Origin: Bacillota bacterium
Lineage (GTDB): Bacteria; Bacillota; Clostridia; Clostridiales; Clostridiaceae
Length of the DNA stretch: 13,467 nucleotides
Direction of reading: 5' to 3'
Assembly (NCBI GenBank): GCA_030705885.1
Contig: JAUZPN010000085.1
Span: 1-13,467, forward strand
Made by a program: the position numbers and the translations under genes. Below the pieces are notes generated by a model. It had not been told where the DNA came from, searched no databases, and was given only the letters and a program-made list of their open reading frames with translations. Numbering within the stretch: the stretch's first letter is position 1; each line of letters opens with the position of its first letter. This document shows, piece after piece, positions 1,083 through 13,291 of this stretch.

Positions 1083-1116
1083 AAGCTTTTCCGATGTTTT
1101 GGAAAGCTTCTTTTTA
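1083..1116. terminator. Bidirectional rho-independent terminator shared by convergent ilvD (+) and the WYL operon (-)
   Basis: AGAAGCTTTTCC / GGAAAGCTTCT inverted repeat with an 8-nt loop, flanked by an A-run on the left and a T-run on the right. It is positioned immediately after both stop codons. Confidence 0.55.
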
Positions 1117-2109
1117 TGGTATACTTTTATTTATCATACTTGAACTGAAAAGTTCTTTCTGCCTTATTAACCTTTCTTTAATTTTAATTAGAAAGCTTTC
1201 AGGACCTATTACTTTTATAACTGGACCAAAGGATAATATAGTAATTAGAAGTTCTGTTTCATCATGTTTGTCATAATAAATATAATTTATATATTTATCG
1301 CTGGTTTCATCATATTCTGTACGCTTTTCATAATTTGCAAAGTGCAGCATACATCTTTCAACAGCATTTCTTTCCTTTGATATTTCAATTACAACAGGCT
1401 CACTGCACTTGTTCATTTCTATATACTTTTCAAAGGAAATGCAGCCATCATAAATTTCTTGTGATGGTGATATAGTTGATATTCTTGAAATGTTTATTAT
1501 TGCAGAAGCTGTAATTTTACCATATTTAATTCTAACTGCATATAGTCTGAACTTATCATTTTTGCTGGAGTATTCTAATTTACAGGGTATAAAATTTCCA
1601 GTAATTCTTCCTGATTTTAAGCTTTCGAAAGAAATTGTTATAACCTTTTTGCTTTTTATTGCAGATAATATTTGATGAAAATTATTTATATAAGCTTCAT
1701 CTGAATAATTATCTCCATCACTGAAAGTATCAAAATAATAAAAGTCTTCCATATTAAATAATGGCTCAACATCTTTAAGCTGTTCTTTTAAATATTCAAT
1801 ATCATTGTTCCCTAAAAAGAGTAGTATTCTTTTGTCGGTTAACAATGCTTTTATCCAGGATTTTTCTAATATAGTTAGTGGCATTTTAATGTTACCATTT
1901 ATTTTGGAAAGATATTTATTATCGTGTTTTTCAAACAAATTCCATTCATTATTTATAAACTTTGGCAAAACATAAAAAGCACTTTCAGAGAAAGCACCAT
2001 CTTCAATAATTTTAGACATCATTTCTTCAGTAATTGGATTGTGTGCTTCTTTTAAAATGTTAGAAACAACTGTATAATAGCAACTGTAAATTTCAGAAAA
2101 TAGCTCCAT
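1114..2109 (-). CDS. HTH-WYL-WCX family transcription regulator (PafC-like paralog, 331 aa)
   Basis: It has a WYL-type core (KFRLYAVRIKYGKITASAIINISRISTI, matching the ..rwYLvay..-..FRLdRI.. pattern). The C-terminus has a WCX-like extension (ELLITILSFGPVIKVIGPESFLIKIKERLIRQKEL). The ATG lies 3 bp downstream of the stop of the upstream paralog, so translation is coupled. Confidence 0.6.
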   Translation of the reverse strand: MELFSEIYSCYYTVVSNILKEAHNPITEEMMSKIIEDGAFSESAFYVLPKFINNEWNLFEKHDNKYLSKINGNIKMPLTILEKSWIKALLTDKRILLFLGNNDIEYLKEQLKDVEPLFNMEDFYYFDTFSDGDNYSDEAYINNFHQILSAIKSKKVITISFESLKSGRITGNFIPCKLEYSSKNDKFRLYAVRIKYGKITASAIINISRISTISPSQEIYDGCISFEKYIEMNKCSEPVVIEISKERNAVERCMLHFANYEKRTEYDETSDKYINYIYYDKHDETELLITILSFGPVIKVIGPESFLIKIKERLIRQKELFSSSMINKSIP

Positions 2110-2112
2110 AGT

Positions 2113-3345
2113 TTAATCAACTCCATACATGTTAAACATTCTATTTATATCACGGTATAGCTTTTGTTCTATAGTTTTGTTTGAGCATTCAAATGAAACT
2201 ATTCTGCCAATAAAACTCTTAATCCAAGGAAGAACTTCATTTCCATCGAATACCTCCTTAGCGTATATATATAAATTAGGTTCCAGCCTTTCAACTGTAC
2301 CATTCATACCTTCGAGTTTTAACCTATTTATAATATAAGATTCAAGTTCTTCATCAATGTATAGCTTCATTTTCAATATGCTGCCTCTGGAATTGTTACC
2401 AAATGAAACCCCCCAGCATTTATCTAAATTATTATTTAATCTTGATGTATAGAGATCATAATTTTCACATTTATTAAGTATTTCAACTGATTTAATATAA
2501 TCGAGCCTGTAATTTACAAATCTCTTTCTTGCTTCATTATAAATAGCAATATACCTACGCCCGGTTCTGCTGCTTATAAATATTTTAAGTGGGATGCCTT
2601 CATATTTTAGTATCAATTCAGTTTTAATACTTTGATTGATAAAACTTATTCTTTTCTTTGTTTTTATAGCTTCTAAAATATTATAAAGAATTTTATCCTC
2701 TAAAGTATGTACAATATAATTATGTTTAAAAATAAAAATGCTGTTTTTTTCATTTTCATTAGACATAAGGTAGCTGCCAATAACTCCAAAAGGAGCAGTG
2801 CCCTGGTAATATTTTATGGCATTTAATAAAGCTTCAGAGTTTACTGATATATTTGAAATATATTGTTTTGATAAACTATAATGCAAAGCTTTACCTGTTT
2901 TGCAGGCTGTAAGAATTCCATCCTTTACATATTCATTAGCTTTTATCCTTACAGTTTGTATATCAAAACAAATATCACTTTTTTTACATATATTATTTGT
3001 AATTTCATCAGCTGTAAGACAGGAGCTTGTACTTAATGTATCCAATATATAAAAATGAAGCATTATATCATTGGAGGTAAAGCTTTTTGATCTCCAAGCA
3101 TAGTAAAAAGGGTTTTCACTTATTTTTGAACTGTCAAGGCTTATAAAAACACGCTTGCCTCCCTTAAAGTTTTCCCATTTTATATAATTTCCAAGATAAC
3201 TTTCAATTCTTCTCTTTTCATTATCATAAGTTCGGCAGCTCTTTTTTGTAAAGTCTTTTCTTGTTTTAAAACCATAAATATAAAAATCGCGCATATAATC
3301 TCTTATTTTATCAAAGTTCTTAACTAGTTCTGAAAACTCAGCCAT
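2113..3345 (-). CDS. HTH-WYL-WCX family transcription regulator with N-terminal extension (PafB-like paralog, 410 aa)
   Basis: It has a strong WYL signature (GRRYIAIYNEARKRFVNYRLDYIKSVEIL). A WCX-like C-terminus is present (LPWIKSFIGRIVSFECSNKTIEQKLYRDI). A DeoR/HTH_11-like segment is present (KKSCRTYDNEKRRIESYL; ILDTLSTSSCLTADEITNNI). An SD-like AAGGCGGTG sits 6 nt upstream of the ATG at 3345. Confidence 0.6.
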   Translation of the reverse strand: MAEFSELVKNFDKIRDYMRDFYIYGFKTRKDFTKKSCRTYDNEKRRIESYLGNYIKWENFKGGKRVFISLDSSKISENPFYYAWRSKSFTSNDIMLHFYILDTLSTSSCLTADEITNNICKKSDICFDIQTVRIKANEYVKDGILTACKTGKALHYSLSKQYISNISVNSEALLNAIKYYQGTAPFGVIGSYLMSNENEKNSIFIFKHNYIVHTLEDKILYNILEAIKTKKRISFINQSIKTELILKYEGIPLKIFISSRTGRRYIAIYNEARKRFVNYRLDYIKSVEILNKCENYDLYTSRLNNNLDKCWGVSFGNNSRGSILKMKLYIDEELESYIINRLKLEGMNGTVERLEPNLYIYAKEVFDGNEVLPWIKSFIGRIVSFECSNKTIEQKLYRDINRMFNMYGVD

Positions 3346-3411
3346 ATTTTCACCGCCTTTTTAACTAATTTGAACTAACCATCCATGATGGTGGCAGCAT
3401 AACCACGAATA

Positions 3412-3432
3412 AAAATGGTGACAAGCCATTTT
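3412..3432. promoter_or_regulatory. Candidate dimeric-regulator operator (perfect 7-N7-7 inverted repeat), proximal copy
   Basis: AAAATGGtgacaagCCATTTT lies about 65 bp upstream of the WYL operon start codon. Its centre is about 62 bp (roughly 6 helical turns) from the second copy at 3474-3494. Confidence 0.35.
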
Positions 3433-3473
3433 CTAATTAACCACCCATGTTGGCTGCAGCACAACCACGGATA

Positions 3474-3494
3474 AAAATTGCAGCAAGCTATTTT
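3474..3494. promoter_or_regulatory. Candidate operator, distal copy (imperfect inverted repeat)
   Basis: AAAATTGcagcaagCTATTTT has one arm mismatch and occupies the same position within repeat unit 2. Confidence 0.3.
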
Positions 3495-3720
3495 TTAATT
3501 AAATATTATAAGGGAAGCATAGATTATAGGTATAATTTTAGCAGTTTAGTGCAATAAAAACAATTAGTGAGTTAATTTCGCAACTTTTTTTATATGATAA
3601 AATTATTTGCTTATGGTAATATTTATCCATGGAAGGTGAGAAAAATAATTCCATAATAAAATGTTCTCTTACTATGTTTGATAACAAAGTTTTACTAAAT
3701 TATTAAAATAAGATTTTGTC

Positions 3721-3768
3721 CGATATCATTTATAAATTAAATTGAACTAAATGTGACGAGGAAAGTAT
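3721..3768 (+). repeat. Partial copy (right ~48 bp) of the ~103-bp inverted-repeat element
   Basis: cgatatcatttataaattaaattgaactaaatgtgacgaggaaagtat aligns with the right half of the copies at 5065-5167 and 8502-8604. Confidence 0.55.
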
Positions 3769-3772
3769 GATT
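3743..3772 (+). promoter_or_regulatory. Sigma-A-like promoter for rtcB embedded in the partial element (TTGAAC-N18-TATGAT)
   Basis: -35 TTGAAC is at 3743-3748, followed by an 18-bp spacer and -10 TATGAT at 3767-3772, which is 45 bp upstream of the rtcB ATG. Relative to the full copies (TGGAAC-N19), this copy has a G-to-T change that improves the -35 and a 1-bp shorter spacer. Confidence 0.4.
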
Positions 3773-3816
3773 AAATGTAGCCAAACAAAGTATACTTAAA
3801 GAAAGGAAGTGTCTAA

Positions 3817-5049
3817 ATGTTTGTTATAAACAATGAACAAACTAAAAAACCAATAAAAATATGGCTGGAAAATGAAGAAAGTTTAGAGGATACTTGTCTA
3901 GAACAAGCATATAAATTATCACAGCTGCCATTTATTCATAAATGGGTAGCACTTATGCCTGATACTCATGCTGGAATGGGTATGCCTATAGGCGGAGTAA
4001 TTGCTTGTAAAAATGTTATTATCCCAAATGCAGTAGGAGTAGATATAGGATGTGGTATGTCTTTCATTGGTACAGATATTAAAGTAGATGATATAAAAGG
4101 TATAACTACACCAAATGGAAGTTTGTTTAAAGGAATTATTGGTGATATTTTAAGAAATGTACCTGTTGGCTTTGCTCATCATAAAACAGCAAAACCATGC
4201 GATGCATTAGATAGAGCAAAAGAAGAAATGGATAAATACAAAAGTCAGCCTGAATTAACTGGTCAAATAGAGGATGGATATTTTCAGGTAGGAACTTTAG
4301 GAGGAGGAAATCATTTTATTGAAATACAGGAAGATGAAGAAGGTTGTCTTGGAATAATGCTTCATTCAGGAAGTCGTAATTTTGGTAAACGTATATGTGA
4401 TTATTTCAATAAAGCTGCTAAAGAGCTAAATGAAAAATGGTATTCTAAAGTACCTCCAGAAGATAGATTAGCTTTTCTTCCAGCAGACACAAAGGAAGGA
4501 ATTGACTATATAAACTGGATGAATCTAGCCTTAGATTTTGCAAAAGAGAATAGAGATAGTATGATGGTAGAAATAAAAAATGTTCTAGAAAAATGGATAA
4601 GTAAATATACTAAGATTAAATTTAAATATACTATAGAAGTAAACTGCCACCATAATTATGCTAGTATTGAAAACCATTATGACAGCAATGTATGGGTTCA
4701 CAGAAAAGGGGCAATAAGAGCAAGAGAAGGAGAAATTGGAATAATACCAGGGGCTATGGGGTCTTACAGCTATATTGTTATAGGTAAAGGAAATCAGGAA
4801 AGCTTCTATTCATGTTCTCATGGTGCAGGAAGACGATACTCAAGGAAAGCAGCAATGGAAAACTTTACAGTAGAACAAGTTATGCTGGATTTAAAACAGC
4901 AAAATGTTGTCCTTGGTAAAACATCTAAAAAGGATGTACCTGAGGAAAGCAGATTTGCTTATAAAGATATTGAAGAAGTAATGAAATCTCAAACAGAATT
5001 AGTTACTCCAATTAAAAGACTCAAAACATTGGGAGTGGTTAAGGGATAA
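3817..5049 (+). CDS. rtcB: RtcB family RNA 3'-phosphate (2',3'-cyclic phosphate) to 5'-OH RNA ligase, 410 aa
   Basis: Metal/GTP-site motifs of RtcB are present: DTHAGMGMPIGG, GCGMSF (Cys), GGGNHFIEIQ, HSGSRNFG, NCHHNYA, SHGAGR. Size is bacterial-type (~408 aa). RBS AAAGGAAG lies 8 nt upstream. Confidence 0.92.
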   Translation: MFVINNEQTKKPIKIWLENEESLEDTCLEQAYKLSQLPFIHKWVALMPDTHAGMGMPIGGVIACKNVIIPNAVGVDIGCGMSFIGTDIKVDDIKGITTPNGSLFKGIIGDILRNVPVGFAHHKTAKPCDALDRAKEEMDKYKSQPELTGQIEDGYFQVGTLGGGNHFIEIQEDEEGCLGIMLHSGSRNFGKRICDYFNKAAKELNEKWYSKVPPEDRLAFLPADTKEGIDYINWMNLALDFAKENRDSMMVEIKNVLEKWISKYTKIKFKYTIEVNCHHNYASIENHYDSNVWVHRKGAIRAREGEIGIIPGAMGSYSYIVIGKGNQESFYSCSHGAGRRYSRKAAMENFTVEQVMLDLKQQNVVLGKTSKKDVPEESRFAYKDIEEVMKSQTELVTPIKRLKTLGVVKG

Positions 5050-5064
5050 TATATTTATTATAAG

Positions 5065-5167
5065 TATACTATCCTCGGTCACAAAGTTCCAATAAATTTC
5101 CAAAAGAAGCTTCACCTCGCTATCATTTACAAATTAATTGGAACTAAATGTGTCCGAGGAAAGTATA
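5065..5167 (+). mobile_element. ~103-bp MITE-like element with imperfect 19-bp terminal inverted repeats, copy B
   Basis: TIRs are TATACTATCCTCGGTCACA ... TGTGTCCGAGGAAAGTATA. A nested inner inverted repeat is present (AGTTCCAATAAATT ... AATTAATTGGAACT). It is about 93% identical to the copy at 8502-8604. The right end carries TGGAAC-N19-TATAAA, an outward promoter-like module. Confidence 0.55.
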
Positions 5168-5330
5168 AATAAGATTATTACAGATTTGACAAGTGTCATC
5201 TGTTTAATATAACTGAAATTTTTTATGCTAAGGCTTATGATGCCTTGCGGTGCTTGAGTCTATGACGATAAAGTATACCGAAATTTCAGGTTTTGTTGTG
5301 AATGACGAAGGTTCGATTCCTTTATTGCCA

Positions 5331-5403
5331 TGTGCAATTAGCTCAGAGGTAGAGCATCACCAGATTAAATTGGATTTTGGAGGTTCGAATCCCCCACAAA
5401 GAC
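5331..5403 (+). ncRNA. tRNA-like element: canonical D-arm and T-arm, degenerate anticodon and acceptor regions (tRNA mimic or tRNA-Lys/Asn-derived pseudogene)
   Basis: The D-arm GCTC-AGAGGTA-GAGC is at 5341-5355, preceded by T8-A9. The T-arm GGAGG-TTCGAAT-CCCCC is at 5379-5395 with one stem mismatch. The anticodon-arm position (TCACC-AGATTAA-ATTGG) cannot form a 5-bp stem. The 5' and 3' acceptor strands are not complementary, and there is no encoded CCA. The anticodon-arm 3' half resembles tRNA-Lys(UUU) (TCAATTGG vs TAAATTGG). A further T-arm-like fragment (GAAGG-TTCGATT-CCTTT, 5308-5324) and a GC-rich 5-bp hairpin (AAGGC-ttatgat-GCCTT, 5230-5246) lie upstream. Confidence 0.5.
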
Positions 5404-5418
5404 TTTCCCGTCTTTTTT
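5398..5418 (+). terminator. Small rho-independent terminator closing the tRNA-like transcription unit
   Basis: AAAGAC-tttccc-GTCTTT is followed by TTT. The stem is weak and AT-rich. Confidence 0.35.
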
Positions 5419-5462
5419 AATATTTTAATACCTATGAACGCAGCCTGCTGTGTTTATAACAT

Positions 5463-5482
5463 AACTGCAGCCTGCAGTTTTT
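5463..5482 (+). terminator. Second terminator-like hairpin (AACTGC-agcct-GCAGTT + TTTTT)
   Basis: The hairpin contains two PstI palindromes (CTGCAGCCTGCAG) followed by a T-run. It is preceded by a near-duplicate GCAGCCTGCTG motif at 5441-5452. Confidence 0.3.
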
Positions 5483-5709
5483 AAGATATCACTGTTTGTA
5501 TTTTACTTTCATTTCTTAGGCAGAAATCTTAATTTATACTATGTTTAGTCATGAAATTTCAATAAATTTCAGCTATACATAGTACAATTAGATAACATAA
5601 GGAACCAAAGTAATTTACAACAGCTCAATTTAAACTCCGCTTCAGTTATGTGGTATTAAGATATAGTTCTAAGCTATAAATTAAAGTATCTAAAAAGGGG
5701 TTGTTAAAG

Positions 5710-6810
5710 ATGGATCATATTATAAATGAAAATCAGAGAGGTTATTTGTTTAGAAATGGATGCTTTGTAAAACTATTATCATCAGGAAAATACAACTTTC
5801 CAAGATTTCTTGGATATAGAGTTGAAAGTGCATTGATAAACGATGAAGCTATTTCAGCAAGTGTTAATATAAATGTACTCTTAAAAGATAAATTATTTTC
5901 AAAAAGCATAACTAGTATAATGGTGGTTGATAACAAAATAGCTGTTCACTTTATAAATGGAAGAATAAAAAATATATTGCAGAGCGGAGAGTATTATTTC
6001 TGGAATATTTTTAATAAGCATACTTTTGAAATAATTGATATGTCAAGTACTGAAGTTTCAAAGGAAATAGATAGAACAATTTTTAATTATATTCCTATAA
6101 AGTATTATACAAAAATAATAGTACCTGATGGACAAAAAGCAATATTATATTTTGATGGAAAGCTTAACAAAGAACTTAGCTGTGGCACTTATTTTTACTG
6201 GAATGTTAAAGAACAAGTATCATATCAGCTTGTAGATATGAGGCTTCAGCAACTTGAAATTTCAGGGCAGGAAATATTAACTACAGATAAGGTAAGTCTT
6301 AGAATCAATTTTAACTGCATTTATAGAATAAAGAATGCTGTTAAAATATTATCTGAAATAAGAGATTATAAGGTTCAGATTTACAGTCTTATTCAGCTTG
6401 TTCTTAGAGAATATGTTGGAGGCTTTAAATTTGATGAGCTTTTAGATCAAAAGGAAGAAATTGCAGCATTTGTGCTTACTAAATTGAAAGAAAAACAGGA
6501 TGAATATTTTATAGAATTTACTACTGCAGGTATAAAGGATATTATACTTCCAGGCGAAATTAAAGAAATTATGAATACAGTACTTATTGCAGAAAAGACA
6601 GCACAGGCAAATGTAATAACAAGGCGTGAAGAGGTTGCATCTACTAGAAGCCTTTTAAATACTGCAAAGCTTATGGATGAAAACAAAACTCTATACAAGC
6701 TCAAGGAAATGGAGTATATTCAAAAAATATGTGATAAGGTTGGAAGTATATCATTAGGCGGCGGAGAAAATCTCTTGAACCAGCTTAACGAATTGCTGTG
6801 CCAGAAATAA
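5710..6810 (+). CDS. SPFH/band-7 domain protein (YdjI/COG4260-like) with a triplicated N-terminal beta-repeat
   Basis: The central region resembles the SPFH fold (QEILTTDKVSLRINFNCIYRIKNAVKILSEIRDYKVQIYSLIQLVLREYVGGFKFDELL), followed by a coiled-coil-like tail. Three N-terminal repeats match G-x-Y-x-F/Y-W-N...VE/D (res 29-45, 95-112, 161-178). I chose the ATG at 5710 with GGGG 9 nt upstream. The ORF track begins at TTG 5701. Confidence 0.65.
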   Translation: MDHIINENQRGYLFRNGCFVKLLSSGKYNFPRFLGYRVESALINDEAISASVNINVLLKDKLFSKSITSIMVVDNKIAVHFINGRIKNILQSGEYYFWNIFNKHTFEIIDMSSTEVSKEIDRTIFNYIPIKYYTKIIVPDGQKAILYFDGKLNKELSCGTYFYWNVKEQVSYQLVDMRLQQLEISGQEILTTDKVSLRINFNCIYRIKNAVKILSEIRDYKVQIYSLIQLVLREYVGGFKFDELLDQKEEIAAFVLTKLKEKQDEYFIEFTTAGIKDIILPGEIKEIMNTVLIAEKTAQANVITRREEVASTRSLLNTAKLMDENKTLYKLKEMEYIQKICDKVGSISLGGGENLLNQLNELLCQK

Positions 6811-6862
6811 ACAGGATATCTTAAATATTTTTAATTGTATAAGCTGATTAAAAAATCTCATG

Positions 6863-6891
6863 TTGAAGTAATCACACATAAGTTGTAGAAT
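6863..6891 (+). promoter_or_regulatory. Candidate promoter for the CPBP gene (TTGAAG-N17-TAGAAT)
   Basis: The hexamers were read from the sequence. GTGAGGT RBS lies 7 nt before ATG 6947. Confidence 0.3.
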
Positions 6892-6946
6892 AATTATATA
6901 TAATTCAAATGGTATAAATAAAATTTATTTTAAGTGAGGTTAATAT

Positions 6947-7933
6947 ATGAAACCTGTTTTTCGCTCAAATTTATTTGCATGTATCCTTATTTTTCTCTAT
7001 GTTTTTGCAGGAGGTTTTGTTCTTGTACGCCTTCATATTCCAAATTACATACTTATCGCTCTTGCAGAAGTCCTATTTCTCCTTGTACCTACTATAATAT
7101 ATTTTTATATTACAAAATTGTCTGTGATCAATACATTAAGACTTCATAAGATTAATATTAAGAGTATAGGAGTAGTTATTTTAATTGTAGCATGCTGCTT
7201 TCCTATTGCAACATTTGCATCATTAGTAACACAGCTCTTTTTTACTAATAATACTGCAAAGGTAATGAATTCGTTTATGTCGCTTCCGCTTATTTTACTT
7301 ATATTGATAACTGCAGTAACACCTGCTGTGTGTGAGGAAGTTACTATGCGTGGGGTTGTACTTTCTGGATATAAAAATGTGGATATAAAAAAGGCTGCAA
7401 TAATGAATGGACTTATTTTTGGATTGTTTCATATGAACCCAGACCAGTTTTTATATGCTTTTGCGTTAGGTGTTATTTTTGCATATATTGTTGATATAAC
7501 AAATTCTATTTTTTCCACAATGATTGCCCATTTTACATTTAATGGTTCACAAACTGTAATGGCTTGGCTTGTAATTAAGTTTTCTCCTTTTTTAAATCAA
7601 GGAACAAAAACTAATGCAGAAACTAGTTTTAGTCAATATTCATTACATCTAAAAGTTATTATGCTAAGTTTTTCATTTGCTTTTGCAGCAGGAAGTGTTG
7701 TACTTGTTGTTTTATTGCTTAAATTATTAAAATCAGTTAATAAAGATAAAATAGCAGAAAAATATGGTAATGGTTTTGAAAATAATGAAGACATATCTGA
7801 GAACAATGAAGTAGGATTATTATATAATAATTATAAACCTAAAAAGGAGAGAGTAGTAAATCTGCCTTTTATATTGATAGTACTTTTATATATTGTTTAT
7901 ATTGGATGGCATTTTTCAAAATTTGCAGCATGA
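6947..7933 (+). CDS. CPBP family intramembrane glutamic endopeptidase (CAAX protease/Abi family), 328 aa polytopic membrane protein
   Basis: The three CPBP signature motifs are present: EExxxR (CEEVTMRG), FxxxH (FGLFH) and HxxxN (AHFTFN). Hydrophobic helices run throughout. Confidence 0.8.
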   Translation: MKPVFRSNLFACILIFLYVFAGGFVLVRLHIPNYILIALAEVLFLLVPTIIYFYITKLSVINTLRLHKINIKSIGVVILIVACCFPIATFASLVTQLFFTNNTAKVMNSFMSLPLILLILITAVTPAVCEEVTMRGVVLSGYKNVDIKKAAIMNGLIFGLFHMNPDQFLYAFALGVIFAYIVDITNSIFSTMIAHFTFNGSQTVMAWLVIKFSPFLNQGTKTNAETSFSQYSLHLKVIMLSFSFAFAAGSVVLVVLLLKLLKSVNKDKIAEKYGNGFENNEDISENNEVGLLYNNYKPKKERVVNLPFILIVLLYIVYIGWHFSKFAA

Positions 7934-7975
7934 TTTTAAAATACAGTTGAGAATTGAGAGTGGAGAAACATTAAA

Positions 7976-8020
7976 AAACAAAGTTCAATTTTGGAACTTT
8001 ATGACCTAGCATAGTATAAT
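7976..8020 (+). repeat. Degenerate fourth copy of the element right end (fused inner inverted repeat AGTTCAA-ttt-TGGAACT plus TTGGAA-N18-TATAAT)
   Basis: ttggaactttatgacctagcatagtataataa aligns with copy C ttggaactaaatgtgaccaaggaaagtataataa. The -35/-10 spacing is good and the module points toward ileS. Confidence 0.4.
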
Positions 8021-8057
8021 AAATTTATAGGAATTATTAAGAAACTATATTTAGGTA

Positions 8058-8085
8058 TTGACAATACAAATATTAATATTATAAT
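8058..8085 (+). promoter_or_regulatory. Strong sigma-A consensus promoter upstream of the ileS leader (TTGACA-N16-TATAAT)
   Basis: TTGACA is at 8058-8063 and TATAAT at 8080-8085. With ATAATA at 8081-8086 the spacing is 17. Confidence 0.5.
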
Positions 8086-8194
8086 ATTTGTATGAATGAA
8101 TAAAATAGTATACTTTTCTCGAACACTTTTAATTCCGCTTAATTAGAAAATAGCTTGTCACTGTTTTCATCCGTAGTTGTGATACAATCATCAT

Positions 8195-8350
8195 GAATGG
8201 TTAATTTATAAATGATAACGGAGAGAATCTTCTTTACAGAAGTTTAGCAGAACTTTGTGACTAGAGATAGTATAAATTAAAGCTGTGAGCAGGAAAAGTA
8301 CTAAAAATTGATACTTAAAGAGAGTGGGGTTAGGTGGAAACCCATAGTAA
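8195..8350 (+). promoter_or_regulatory. T-box riboswitch-like leader, Stem I region plus first T-box-like sequence
   Basis: GGAGAGA is followed by AUC (Ile codon, 8227-8229). The segment CUAGAGAUAGUAUAAAUUAAAGCUGUGAGCAGG resembles the conserved distal Stem I platform of T-boxes (cf. glyQS CUAGGAUAGUGAAAGCUAGAGG). UUAGGUGGAAACCC at 8330-8343 resembles the T-box consensus UUAGGGUGGNACC. No terminator follows this copy. Confidence 0.4.
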
Positions 8351-8501
8351 GTTTTTAGGAAAATCACCTGGGAGTGGAAAGCTGAATAGTAAACTCATGT
8401 TAATTGGATATTTTATAATACATTTTTCTTGAATATATTTAATTTATAAATAACAGCATAGAGAAGATTTTTAAAATTAATGAGATTTTGTGTTTAATAG
8501 A

Positions 8502-8604
8502 TATACTATCCTCAGTCACAAAGTTCCAATAAATTTCTAAAAGAAACTTCACATCGCTATCATTTAAAAATTAATTGGAACTAAATGTGACCAAGGAAAG
8601 TATA
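8502..8604 (+). mobile_element. ~103-bp MITE-like inverted-repeat element, copy C, inside the ileS 5' leader
   Basis: It is about 93% identical to copy B, with TIRs TATACTATCCTCAGTCACA ... TGTGACCAAGGAAAGTATA. The right end carries TGGAAC-N19-TATAAT pointing at ileS. Confidence 0.55.
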
Positions 8605-8689
8605 ATAATAGTCCAAATTTAAGAGTTTTAGTAGGTGCATCCGTAATCCTGCGTTAAGGGATAGAGTATGTTAGTGCTTGAAAAAATGC

Positions 8690-8743
8690 TGTTTTAGGTG
8701 GTTTTGTGAAGTTAGCTTCATCCTATTAGGATGGAGCTTTTTT
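8690..8743 (+). terminator. T-box-type antiterminator/terminator attenuator immediately upstream of ileS
   Basis: A second TTAGGTGG (8694-8701) is followed by terminator AGCTTCATCC-tatta-GGATGGAGCT and TTTTT (8714-8743). The T-box-like sequence overlaps the 5' arm of the terminator, as expected for mutually exclusive folds. ileS starts at 8818. Confidence 0.5.
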
Positions 8744-8817
8744 GTGTAATTTAAGCACATTACTTAATATAAAAACAATCAGTAATTGTTTAGTTTAATA
8801 AGAAAGGGGAAAATTAT

Positions 8818-11800
8818 ATGTACAAAAAAGTTGACTCAACAAGAAGTTTTGTTGATATGGAAAAAGAAGTACTAAAGCTATGGCAGGAAAAAGATATAAT
8901 CCAAAAAAACTTTGATTTGAATAAGGATGGAGAATATTTTACATTTTATGATGGACCTCCTACAGCAAATGGAAAGCCTCATATAGGTCATGTTATAACA
9001 AGAGTTATGAAGGATTTAATTCCTAGATACAAGGTTATGAAAGGTTATAAGGTTTTAAGAAAGGCAGGCTGGGATACTCATGGACTTCCAGTAGAATTGG
9101 AAGTTGAAAAGTCTCTTGGAATTTCAGGAAAGCCTGAAATAGAAGAATATGGAGTAGAAGGTTTCATAAAAAAATGTAAAGAAAGTGTATTTACATATTC
9201 AAGTCTTTGGAAGGATATGTCCGAGAAGGTTGGCTTCTGGGTAGACATGGAAAATCCTTATGTAACATATCATAATGATTATATTGAATCAGAATGGTGG
9301 GCTCTTAAAAAAATTTGGGATAAGGGACTTATTTATAAAGGTCATAAAATAGTGCCATATTGTCCAAGATGCGGAACCGCTCTTTCATCTCATGAAGTTG
9401 CTCAAGGCTATAAAGATGTAAAAGAAACTTCAGTATATGTTAAATTTAAAATAGTAAATGAAGATAAATATATATTAGCATGGACAACTACTCCTTGGAC
9501 ACTTCCAAGTAATGTAGCACTTGCTATCAATAAAAAATATGAATATGTTGAAGTAATAAATAATGATGAACATTTGATTCTTGCTAAATCATTATTAAAT
9601 AAATTAGATGGTGAATATGAAATTGTAAGGGAATTCCTTGGTGAAGAATTAGTTGGAACTCAATATGAACAGCTATTTAAGTTTGCAAAACCTGATAAGA
9701 AAGCTTTTTATGTGGTTCATGCAGATTATGTAACACTTACAGATGGTACAGGTGTAGTTCATACTGCTCCTGCCTATGGTGAAGATGATAATCTTACTGG
9801 TAAGAAATATGATTTACCATTAATCAACTTAGTTGATGCTGAAGGTAAATTTGTAGATGAAGTTGAACCTTGGAAAGGTATGTTTGTTAAAACAGCAGAC
9901 CCTAAGGTAATAGAGTTTATGAGAGAAAATGGAATACTTTATAAAGCTGAGAAGTTTACTCACTCTTATCCTTTCTGCTGGAGATGTGATACACCGCTTT
10001 TATACTATCCAAGACAGAGCTGGTTTATAAAAATGTCTTCTTTAAGAGACAAACTCGTAGCTAATAATAATACTGTTAACTGGTATCCTGACAATGTTAG
10101 AACAGGAAGATTTGGTAACTTTATTGAAAATGTTATTGACTGGGGTATAAGCAGAGAAAGATATTGGGGAACTCCAATACCAATTTGGGAATGTGAATGT
10201 GGTCACAGAGAATGTATAGGAAGCATTGAAGAACTAAAGCAAAAAGGAATTAATGTATCTGAAAATATAGAACTTCACAAACCTTATATTGATGAGGTTA
10301 AATTAACCTGTCCTCACTGTGGAAAATTAATGAAGAGAATTTCAGAAGTTATAGATTGCTGGTTTGATTCTGGTTCTATGCCTTTTGCACAGCATCACTA
10401 TCCTTTTGAAAATAAAGAAATTTTTGAGCAGAATTTCCCAGCACAATTTATTTCAGAAGCAGTGGATCAAACAAGAGGATGGTTTTATACATTAATGGCT
10501 ATATCAACAATTTTGTTTGATAAAGCACCTTTTGAGAACTGTGTAGTTTTAGGTCATATTCTTGATAAAAATGGACTTAAGATGTCAAAGCATAAGGGAA
10601 ATGTATTAAGTCCATTTACAGTACTTGAAAATGAAGGTGCTGATGCAACAAGATGGTATTTTTATACTGCAAGTGCACCATGGCTTCCTTCAAGGTTTTA
10701 TGAAGATGCTGTAATAGAAGCTCAAAGGAAATTTATAAGTACATTATGGAATGTATATTCCTTCTATGTGCTTTATGCAGAAATAGATAAATTTGATCCA
10801 ACTAAATATGAAGATTTTGTTTCATCAAATGTAATGGATAAGTGGATAATGTCAAGACTTAATACTCTTGTAAACAAAGTTGATGAAGATCTTAACGGCT
10901 ATAGAATAACTCAGGCTGCACTTTCAATAGAAGATTTTACAGATGAGCTTTCAAACTGGTATGTTAGAAGAAACAGATCAAGATATTGGGTTGAAGAATT
11001 AACAGAGGATAAAATAGGTGCATATGTAACCTTATATAGGGTGATTACTACATTATCCATAGTTTCAGCACCATTTGTTCCATTTATAACAGAAGAAATC
11101 TATCAGAATTTAGTGACAGCTCTGAATAAAAATGCTCCTGAAAGTGTTCATCTGTGCAAATGGCCTGAAGTGAAGGATAATATAATTGATAAAGCTTTAG
11201 AAGCTGAAATGGAAGAAGCTTATAAAATCGTTAAGCTTGGAAGAAGTGCTAGAAATGGTGCTAATATTAAAAACAGGCAGCCTCTTTTAGAAATGCTTCT
11301 AAGTGTAGATACATTACCATCATATTATGGGAATATTATAAAGGATGAACTTAATATTAAAGAAGTAAAATTTGGTGCAGACCTTTCAAAATATGTTAAT
11401 TTTGAAATTAAGCCAAACTTACCTGTGCTTGGTAAAGCTTATGGCAGATTTATTCCTGGCATAAAGAAAGAAATAGCTGCTATGAACCAAATGGAGCTTG
11501 CTTCAAAAATTCAAGCTGGAGAAACTGTTGTAATTAATGTTCAAGGTACTGAAATTGAACTTAACAGTGAAAAGCTTCTTATAACTATGCAGGGACTTGA
11601 AGGCTATGCATTCGCAGGAGAAGGACATATAGGTGTAGTTTTGGATACAACTATAACTCCTGAACTTAAGGAAGAGGGACATCAAAGAGAAATCATAAGC
11701 AAGATTCAAAATATGAGAAAAGAAAAAGGCTTTGAAGTTGCTGATAAGATTAATCTTTATGTAAGTGATAATGAAATGCTTGAAAATGTAGTTAAAAAAT

Positions 11801-11922
11801 TTGAAGACTTTATTAAAAAAGAAACACTTACAGTTGGAGTAACCTATGGCAGTGAAAGACAATATACTGAATGCAGCATTAATGGAGAAAAATTTAATAT
11901 CGATGTAGAAGTAGTTAAGTAA
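8818..11922 (+). CDS. ileS: Isoleucine--tRNA ligase, type 2 (eukaryote-like, 1034 aa, no C-terminal zinc-knuckle)
   Basis: Class I aaRS motifs are present: HIGH ([13 protein letters not shown]) and KMSKS (KMSKHKGN). A CP1 editing domain, tRNA-binding WCISR-like ([14 protein letters not shown]) and the IleRS anticodon-binding region are recognisable. The C-terminus has a single Cys, so there is no CxxC...CxxC. A strong RBS is present: AAGAAAGGGGAAAATTAT-ATG. Confidence 0.95.
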
Positions 11923-11967: not shown

Positions 11968-12035
11968 GTTAAGAAAGCTGTCAACAATGAAAACATATTA
12001 AAATATGAAGAAATGGAGATGTGGAAGCAAAAAAT

Positions 12036-13070
12036 ATGAGAAAAATATCAATTGAACCATTTGCAAAGCAGTTAATTGATGATATGTATAAAAACTATGA
12101 TTACACTATCGAAGATTTCAGCTTAATTAAAGGAATAAGTGTACCTTGGGGACTTTCTAAAATTCTTCAAAATGGAACAAAAATTAATATACTTTTTTTA
12201 AGTCACGATGATGATATCCTAAATATCAACTCTGACAGCAATATATATGATATTATTGATGTAAAAAAAGAGAAAATTGTTAAAATAATATTGATAGGAG
12301 AAGATATTGATGATAGTGAGGTAATAAGTAAATTAAATTATCTCAGTGATTTTAAGGCAATTGAGAATAATTCAATTATAATAGACTTGATACATAGCAC
12401 AATTCAAATATCAGACAACAGTATCGAGGAAATAGCAAAACAAATAAATAGTATTGTTAGTGTAAACAGCAGGGCCAAGCAGAATAAAATAAATTCTGCT
12501 GCAACATATACACTAATTGGCATTAATATATTTATGTTTATTATTTCAATCATATTAAATGGCGGGAATCCTATAGATATAAATAATTATGTATTAATTA
12601 TGCTTGGAGCAAAATATAATACGGCTATAATACAAGGACAATGGTTTCGTCTATTAACATGTACATTTTTACATGGAGGACTTGTACATATTGCTGCAAA
12701 TATGTATTCCTTATATTCAGTAGGGCCACTAGTTGAATCTTTATATGGAAAATATAAATATATATTTATGTACTTAATAGCAGGTATTGTATCATCATTA
12801 TTTAGTTTTCTATTTAGCACCGGCATATCCATAGGAGCATCTGGCTCTATATTTGGTCTTTTGGGAATTATTTTAGTGTTTGCTTTAAAGAAAAAAAAGA
12901 CACTTGGCAGAAAATTTTTAATGAATGTATCATCAGTAATAGCAGTAAATTTATTAATAGGCTTTAGCCTTCCAGGAATTGACAATTTTGCTCACTTAGG
13001 AGGATTGTTTGCAGGTATATTTTTAGCATTAATAATAAGAACATCAGAGAACACAAACAGGGACGGTTAA
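12036..13070 (+). CDS. Rhomboid family intramembrane serine protease with ~160-aa N-terminal cytoplasmic domain
   Basis: The catalytic Ser motif GASGSIFGLLG and catalytic His motif AHLGGLFAG are present, along with YRLLTCTFLHGG (WR-loop-like) and six hydrophobic helices in the C-terminal half. I preferred ATG 12036 (GGAAG 9 nt upstream) over the GTG at 12021 used by the ORF track. Confidence 0.8.
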   Translation: MRKISIEPFAKQLIDDMYKNYDYTIEDFSLIKGISVPWGLSKILQNGTKINILFLSHDDDILNINSDSNIYDIIDVKKEKIVKIILIGEDIDDSEVISKLNYLSDFKAIENNSIIIDLIHSTIQISDNSIEEIAKQINSIVSVNSRAKQNKINSAATYTLIGINIFMFIISIILNGGNPIDINNYVLIMLGAKYNTAIIQGQWFRLLTCTFLHGGLVHIAANMYSLYSVGPLVESLYGKYKYIFMYLIAGIVSSLFSFLFSTGISIGASGSIFGLLGIILVFALKKKKTLGRKFLMNVSSVIAVNLLIGFSLPGIDNFAHLGGLFAGIFLALIIRTSENTNRDG

Positions 13071-13289
13071 CAACTTATCATCTTTAGCGAGCAGGGTAGG
13101 GTAGGGTAGGTAACAGGGTAACAGGGACGGTTAACAACTTATTAGCTTTAGCGAGTAAGATGTTAACCGTCCCTAATTTCATGCAAATGATGACTATTCA
13201 TATTTGCCAAAGAAATGATAACCGTCCCTGATACTGATACTGATACTGATATAGCCATTCTCAATTGTCAAAAAAATGATAACCGTCCC
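13058..13289. repeat. Cluster of five GGGACGGTTA(A/T)C motifs (2 forward, 3 reverse) plus a 34-bp direct repeat, a 14-bp perfect hairpin, a G-run array and (GATACT)4
   Basis: Forward copies are at 13060 and 13124, within the 34-bp direct repeats CAGGGACGGTTAACAACTTATYAKCTTTAGCGAG. Reverse copies are at 13162, 13217 and 13277. AGGGACGGTTAACA-24nt-TGTTAACCGTCCCT has perfect 14-bp arms (13123-13174). GGGTAGGGTAGGGTAGGTAACAGGGTAACAGGG is at 13093-13127. GATACT x4 is at 13230-13253. Confidence 0.7.
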
Positions 13290-13291
13290 CA

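Follow-up and report, generated by a model that had tools for sequence, protein, structure and literature searches.

We analyzed a 13,467-bp window, the whole of one contig of a metagenome-assembled "Bacillota bacterium", in which the closest protein homologues of the genes come from Clostridium species. A repeat dispersed through this window is very probably a MITE family, i.e., transposable elements of miniature size that carry inverted repeats. It is a non-coding element of about 99 bp with terminal inverted repeats (TIRs) of about 30 nt and a TA duplication, similar in type to the Correia and RUP elements. This assignment is based on the small size, the lack of coding capacity, the long TIRs, the TA duplication, and three filled/empty polymorphisms. 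The family is previously undescribed and is documented here in an uncultured Clostridium-like lineage; the kind of element is well known. It has apparently been active recently around this gene cluster. The original prediction had described a dispersed inverted-repeat element whose right end is an outward promoter module. The first part is borne out by copies that are about 93% identical, a TA target-site duplication, and insertion-site polymorphism among relatives. The second part is not supported as the role of the element; an outward promoter is at best a fortuitous side effect of some copies.

The two best-preserved copies, A and B, are on the + strand. Copy A spans positions 5065 to 5167, and the element proper (5067 to 5165, 99 bp) runs from TACTATCC to GGAAAGTA. 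It is located 15 nt 3′ of the rtcB stop codon and 19 nt 5′ of the TTGACA −35 that belongs to the gene of a Y-RNA-like RNA. Copy B spans 8502 to 8604 (element proper 8504 to 8602) and lies within the T-box leader of ileS. As predicted, these are two full copies with about 93% identity (93.2% over 103 nt, E = 1.6e-39). We checked whether the similarity could be an artefact of AT-rich sequence, and found that it is far above chance. The 28-nt left end had 3 matches at ≤3 mismatches versus 0.00 expected, and 5 matches at ≤9 mismatches versus 0.11 expected in shuffles. The TIRs are imperfect, roughly 30 nt long (about 28 to 35 nt), and begin with 5′-TACTATCCTCGGTCACAAAGTTCCAA... The predicted inverted repeats exist, but their predicted length of 19 bp was too short, and the whole element folds as a near-perfect hairpin of about 45 bp.

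Comparison with relatives showed that the element inserts. Searching with the CAAX protease led to two close relatives, L005, whose protein is 95% identical (Logan SRR28060961), and L004 (89%, SRR32608976). In an alignment of the CAAX-ileS intergenic region, copy B corresponds to a gap of exactly 101 nt (99 + 2) in both relatives, with almost identical flanks. The sequence is ...AATAGA-TA-ATAATAG where the site is empty and ...AATAGA-TA-[TACTATCC...GGAAAGTA]-TA-ATAATAG where it is filled. The 101-nt difference is thus a 99-bp insertion plus a TA duplication. TA flanks are present on both sides of A, B, and copy D (described below). A 3-nt ATA duplication would fit B but not A. The relatives add two further insertion sites to those in the window. 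Copy H is located immediately upstream of the CAAX gene and is present in both L004 and L005, and its empty site in the window is TATAAT at 6899 to 6904 (+ strand; TATA|TAAT). Both contigs (L004:1-44 and L005:1-44), which come from independent Logan assemblies, stop at the same point, 44 nt inside copy H, as expected of a multicopy repeat in short-read contigs. This suggests that the MITE is what fragments assemblies of this lineage, and the repeat would explain where they break. Copy G is in the gap between ileS and the rhomboid gene. It is filled in L004 (L004:5013-5112) and empty in the window (11994 to 11999, + strand).

The whole-element palindrome would also suit a different class of repeat, one of the REP/RAYT or IS200/IS605-derived families moved by a Y1 transposase. 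Those families make no target duplication, have a fixed tetra- or pentanucleotide neighbor, and carry short subterminal hairpins. Since a TA duplication is seen in A, B, and D and in the comparison of filled and empty sites for B, we consider this origin extremely unlikely.

Besides A and B, the window contains further copies in both orientations. Copy C (3668 to 3771, + strand) is full length but decayed, with about 75% identity (nhmmer E = 8e-23). Its position is between the ribosome-binding site of rtcB and a conserved native promoter block of this gene. The segment 3721 to 3768, which had been taken for a partial copy, is the right half of C. Copy D (8109 to 8274, − strand) consists of a left part (8201 to 8274) and a right repeat (8109 to 8138) separated by an internal 62-nt insert (8139 to 8200). 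It separates T-box stem I from the probable native promoter of the ileS leader and is conserved in L004 and L005. Remnant E (7976 to 8020, − strand) is a solo terminal repeat (7991 to 8018) with a short inner fragment and is likewise conserved in both relatives. It had been read as a right end, with all copies in one orientation. However, it matches the left end of A in reverse (3 mismatches, 89% over 28 nt), and D is reversed as well. Remnant F (5535 to 5570, + strand) is a probable solo left end with 78% identity to positions 1 to 36 of A, although its E value of 1e-3 is marginal. A possible remnant of the central part, in the linker of the T-box leader (8438 to 8472, − strand; 76% over 34 nt), is not significant (nhmmer E = 0.5). 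In total, the window holds four full or near-full copies, three on the + strand and one reversed, plus two to three remnants. The repeat family had been recognized correctly but was partly misdescribed, and D, F, and the possible remnant at 8438 to 8472 had been missed.

Among more distant Clostridiaceae, copy A is absent from L016 and L014, and copy C is absent from L016, L017, and L014. These genomes (L016, L017, and L014/L015) lack A, C, and the 62-nt units, and their remaining non-coding sequence aligns with the window. A search for close relatives of RtcB and the slipin gave none above 75% identity, and therefore A and C can be compared with distant relatives only. Exact-protein look-ups of the RtcB and CAAX proteins of the window returned no match on record.

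The hairpin is very stable, with a predicted folding energy of −40.4 kcal/mol for A (z −10.5) and −31.9 kcal/mol for B (z −9.4), and z is about −10 on both strands. One could therefore ask whether the repeat is a structured-RNA family, in which a hairpin of about 100 nt is selected for its fold as a cis-acting RNA or a small RNA gene, for example as a stability element or an RNase III site. In addition to the stability, C, D, and B lie within transcribed leaders, and the hairpins of Neisseria MITEs are RNase III substrates (PMC2649163, PMC2229807). However, among the stem differences that set B apart from A are two C·A mismatches without compensation on the transcribed (+) strand, with the loss of stability given above. 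In copy C, which has a 1-nt deletion in the right repeat, the fold is wholly lost (z +0.6). There is no Rfam match over the element, and neither the TA duplications nor the presence/absence polymorphism is expected of a selected RNA. Selection for the fold is thus very improbable. RNA-level side effects of a MITE are nevertheless possible, such as the RNase III cleavage shown for Correia elements (PMC2649163). The element has no coding capacity, since the one frame that is open in A is interrupted by stop codons in B, and the peptide from that frame had 0 matches among 1.8e9 proteins. In summary, the repeat is shorter than about 300 bp, does not code, and has TIRs, a target-site duplication, and a filled/empty polymorphism, as MITEs do.

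We then considered the ends. A motif of the form TTG(G/A)AAC ... TATA(AT/AA) is found at every well-preserved end. It could be taken to mean that the repeat is a promoter-delivery cassette, the right end being a functional σ70-type promoter that was recruited or selected for rtcB, the Y-RNA-like gene, and ileS. A consensus promoter scan called the right end of C (TTGAAC-18-TATGAT, 9/12) and remnant E (TTGGAA-18-TATAAT, 10/12), and the left end of D is within 2 nt of T-box stem I. There is also precedent in other MITEs (PMC10969869) and in the Correia "Black promoter", in which the element gives a −35 and a partial −10 that is completed at some insertion sites (PMC2649163). However, what reads as TTGGAAC ... 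TATA is simply the terminal repeat. The motif is therefore present at both ends and faces outward both ways, including antisense into rtcB and stem I, and the scan called the left end of A on the minus strand (9/12). In the young copies A and B, TTGGAA and the hexamer (TATAAA/TATAAT) at the right end are 20 nt apart, and the scan called neither of these right ends; the spacing expected of a σ70-type promoter is 16 to 18 nt. An 18-nt spacer is found only in C, E, and the left ends; the left ends of B and D have this spacing too, yet were not called. The claim that every copy ends in TTGGAAC-N17-19 followed by a TATAAT-type hexamer holds for the motif at well-preserved ends; counted from the TTGGAA hexamer, however, the spacer in A and B is 20 nt. 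Promoter-like matches in the region numbered 40, versus 33.9 ± 6.4 in shuffles, i.e., there was no excess. Half of the "−10", its last bases, is supplied by the TA duplication and the A/T-rich flank. In addition, copies were gained and lost between close relatives without effect on the genes, and the native promoter-like sites conserved in relatives are outside the element.

Two further arguments for a promoter role lose their force. Because rtcB, rhomboid, and every gene between them are on the + strand, an insertion into any intergenic gap will stand in front of a + strand unit. The copy at rtcB, C, does have TTGAAC and a shorter, 18-nt spacer, as had been noted. However, the shorter spacer results from the 1-nt deletion, and C is decayed along its whole length; neutral decay accounts for the spacer no less well than selection. 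We consider a promoter cassette unlikely. The promoter-like ends appear to be mostly a by-product of the terminal repeats (TTGGAAC ... GTA) and of TA-rich landing sites. Weak outward transcription may arise fortuitously at either end, but we infer that the ends do not drive rtcB, the Y-RNA-like gene, or ileS. A σ54 reading of TTGGAAC was rejected by eye, as there is no GC dinucleotide at −12.

The native sites are as follows. Upstream of rtcB, a block at 3578 to 3622 (+ strand) contains TCGCAACTTTTTTTATATGATAA-N14-TGGTAATAT, which is extended −10-like, and is near-invariant in L016, L017, and L014. Across lineages with RtcB proteins of about 70% identity, TCGCAACTTTTTTTATATGATAA...TGGTAnTAT hardly varies. 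This block is not part of the repeat. It is a candidate operator/promoter for the WYL-domain protein encoded divergently to rtcB, and copy C, which lies downstream of it, is probably in the rtcB 5′ untranslated region (UTR). The promoter-like site of the Y-RNA-like gene (TTGACA-16-TATAAC, 5186 to 5213, + strand) lies downstream of copy A, and only its −10 core (ATATAAC) is conserved in relatives. The probable native ileS-leader promoter at 8058 to 8085 (+ strand) is TTGACA-16-TATAAT, 12/12 to consensus. Its conservation in L004 and L005 is 100%, although the repeat copies on either side of it vary, and without copy D it would sit upstream of T-box stem I by about 17 nt. At 8064 to 8093, an AT-rich palindrome of 30 nt (87%) overlaps this promoter. 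The stretch 8020 to 8105 is identical throughout in L004 and L005, although the adjoining sequence varies.

The original prediction had offered an alternative in which one regulator co-controls the three units, with the ends of the repeat as its binding sites. The divergent WYL protein would be one example, and repeats are indeed near all three units. However, other Clostridiaceae with this WYL/rtcB/Y RNA module lack A and C, and B is absent from the relatives whose CAAX proteins are 95% and 89% identical. The conserved sequence upstream of rtcB (3578 to 3622) is unrelated to the repeat, and operators are not marked by TA duplications or by ends that are solo or decayed. We therefore give a shared operator scarcely any credence and caution that the repeat should not be taken as a regulon signature linking rtcB, the Y-RNA-like gene, and ileS.

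Copy B had been placed in front of the ileS leader, but it is inside the leader. Stem I spans 8276 to 8385 (+ strand; RF00230, 67 bits, E = 2e-13) and has the specifier AUC (Ile) at 8364 to 8366, which matches the gene. The T-box sequence/antiterminator and the terminator occupy 8696 to 8744 (+ strand), with AGGUGGUUUUGUGA at 8696 to 8709 and a terminator at 8714 to 8738 followed by a T run. B lies between stem I, with a probable stem II, and the antiterminator. This interval (8386 to 8695) is unusually long, about 210 nt even without B. The whole-model T-box score is below the gathering score (93) in all three genomes. The low score can be ascribed to the interruption of the leader, although it is low both with and without B. 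A transcript that starts at the right end of B would lack stem I and the specifier and meet the terminator at 8714 to 8738. Such a transcript should terminate and would not usefully drive ileS, which argues further against a promoter cassette.

The recent insertion of a MITE within a T-box leader is the one mildly unusual point, and natural empty-site controls exist. The leaders of the window and its relatives, with B and without it, form a natural pair on which to ask if a T-box riboswitch can accommodate a hairpin of 100 nt that separates stem I from the antiterminator. A more far-reaching proposal is that the MITE lands preferentially where a −10-like box or a 5′ leader offers a TA, rebuilds a −35/−10 pair at its ends, and is actively rewiring tRNA-related units (rtcB, the Y-RNA-like gene, and ileS), with B altering the riboswitch. 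If so, RNase III cleavage could part stem I from the antiterminator, or a stem-I-less transcript could be made. We see only a slim chance that this proposal is correct.

We suggest that a transposase encoded elsewhere in the genome would cut and paste the 99-bp element in trans. Insertion would occur at TA dinucleotides of AT-rich intergenic DNA, with duplication of the TA. Judging from this duplication, the enzyme may be of the IS630/Tc1-mariner type, as was proposed for RUP (PMC2229807). In this scenario, copy C in the rtcB 5′ UTR and copies D and B in the ileS leader would fold as self-contained hairpins once transcribed, and the ileS leader would tolerate such hairpins.

Several observations weigh against the MITE assignment. 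The target duplication is only 2 nt, and TA is frequent in this DNA. The copy count is limited, with about nine insertion sites across three short contigs. C, E, and the left end of D could be genuine promoters. In plasmids, phages, viral contigs, and JGI metagenomes, we found neither a cognate transposase or full-length insertion sequence (IS) with these termini nor copies outside this lineage. BLASTN of the whole element and of the terminal repeat against plasmids and phages gave nothing or 18-nt chance matches. Scans of viral contigs gave 0 matches and 4 chance matches, and a 21-mer core had seven chance matches in JGI metagenomes, with no similarity beyond the pattern. A scan of a genome collection with a degenerate left-end pattern yielded 3 chance matches among the matches listed and is uninformative on copy number.

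MITEs with TA termini, a target duplication, a hairpin RNA, and σ70-like promoters at their ends are well documented (PMC2229807, PMC2649163, PMC10969869). The closest parallel is the Correia (CREE/NEMIS) family of Neisseria. Its elements are about 100 to 155 bp long, with long TIRs beginning TATA..., a TA target site, insertion polymorphism between strains, and a whole-element hairpin RNA (PMC2649163, PMC2229807). As in the repeat described here, a −35 and a partial −10 lie inside the end and are completed by flanking DNA, and an internal block of about 50 bp creates size variants, which may be compared with the 62-nt insert of D (PMC2649163, PMC2229807). However, the repeat has no apparent overlap with the core motifs quoted in PMC2649163, a distinction that is based on the quoted motifs and not on an alignment. 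It also belongs to a different phylum, in an uncultured Clostridium-like Bacillota lineage, where no IHF site is expected. Its young copies have the poor 20-nt spacing, and its ends are promoter-like in sequence.

RUP is a MITE of Firmicutes of about 107 bp that is likewise non-coding and intergenic, uses TA target sites, and inserts near or into other repeats (PMC2229807, PMC3049150). Its proposed mobilization by IS630-Spn1 rests on similarity of the terminal repeats (PMC2229807), whereas no parent IS was identified for the repeat described here. The contiguously paired part of the RUP TIR is 9 bp (PMC2229807), in contrast to the imperfect repeats of about 30 nt in this element. Clustered insertions are a feature shared with both Correia and RUP (PMC2229807, PMC2649163, PMC10969869). 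As far as could be judged, the element is not a sequence member of either family. MITEAba12, BrickBuilt, QMITE1, and SonMITE_1 also have promoter-like sequences within the MITE upstream of genes (PMC10969869), but they come from unrelated organisms, and none is reported within a T-box leader in the cited accounts.

The gene order of the window is as follows. On the + strand are ilvD (17 to 1066), rtcB (3817 to 5049), the SPFH/slipin gene (5701 to 6810), the CAAX protease gene (6947 to 7933), ileS (8818 to 11922), and the rhomboid gene (12021 to 13070). On the − strand are the genes of a hypothetical protein of about 330 aa (1114 to 2109) and the WYL-domain protein of about 410 aa (2113 to 3345). 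The Y-RNA-like RNA, which has two tRNA-like T arms, lies between rtcB and the slipin gene. Its Rfam YrlA match of 42 bits is below the gathering score, and ARAGORN found no tRNA. At gathering thresholds, no Rfam family was found anywhere in the window, and the window contains no Ro60/Rsr gene. The region from 1114 to 6810, with the hypothetical and WYL genes divergent from rtcB, the Y RNA, and slipin, is a conserved Clostridiaceae module. The whole module is seen in L016 (3627 to 8752) and L017, and the L014/L015 contigs show rtcB, the Y RNA, and slipin. The idea that C, rtcB, and A moved together as a composite transposon was rejected, since other Clostridiaceae have rtcB-Y RNA-slipin and the divergent WYL gene as a native module that is conserved. 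Conservation in L016 and L014 is also seen for a non-coding stretch 3′ of the Y-RNA-like gene (5420 to 5530), which could be another small RNA. Within it is a 27-nt tandem repeat, GCAGCCTGC..., at 5440 to 5493.

The window also contains a second repeat, a unit of 62 nt bounded by (T)AATTAA. Two tandem units on the + strand (3378 to 3440 and 3441 to 3502, together 3378 to 3502) lie within a 167-nt block (3364 to 3530) that is absent from L016. The third unit, in reverse, is the insert of copy D at 8139 to 8200. Each unit has a TTGTCA-17-TATGCT/TGTGAT sequence directed at what lies next to it, the WYL gene or T-box stem I. Taken as a possible structured RNA, the unit showed no significant fold. 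It may represent an internal module of a "long variant" of the MITE, and the 167-nt block may be such a variant in decayed form.

Finally, the region 3′ of the rhomboid gene (13056 to 13290) has five copies of GGGACGGTTAAC / GATAACCGTCCC in both orientations, with a 25-nt palindrome among them at 13123 to 13174. Interleaved with these copies are two microsatellites, (GGGTAG)n at about 13094 to 13112 and (GATACT)n at about 13231 to 13252.

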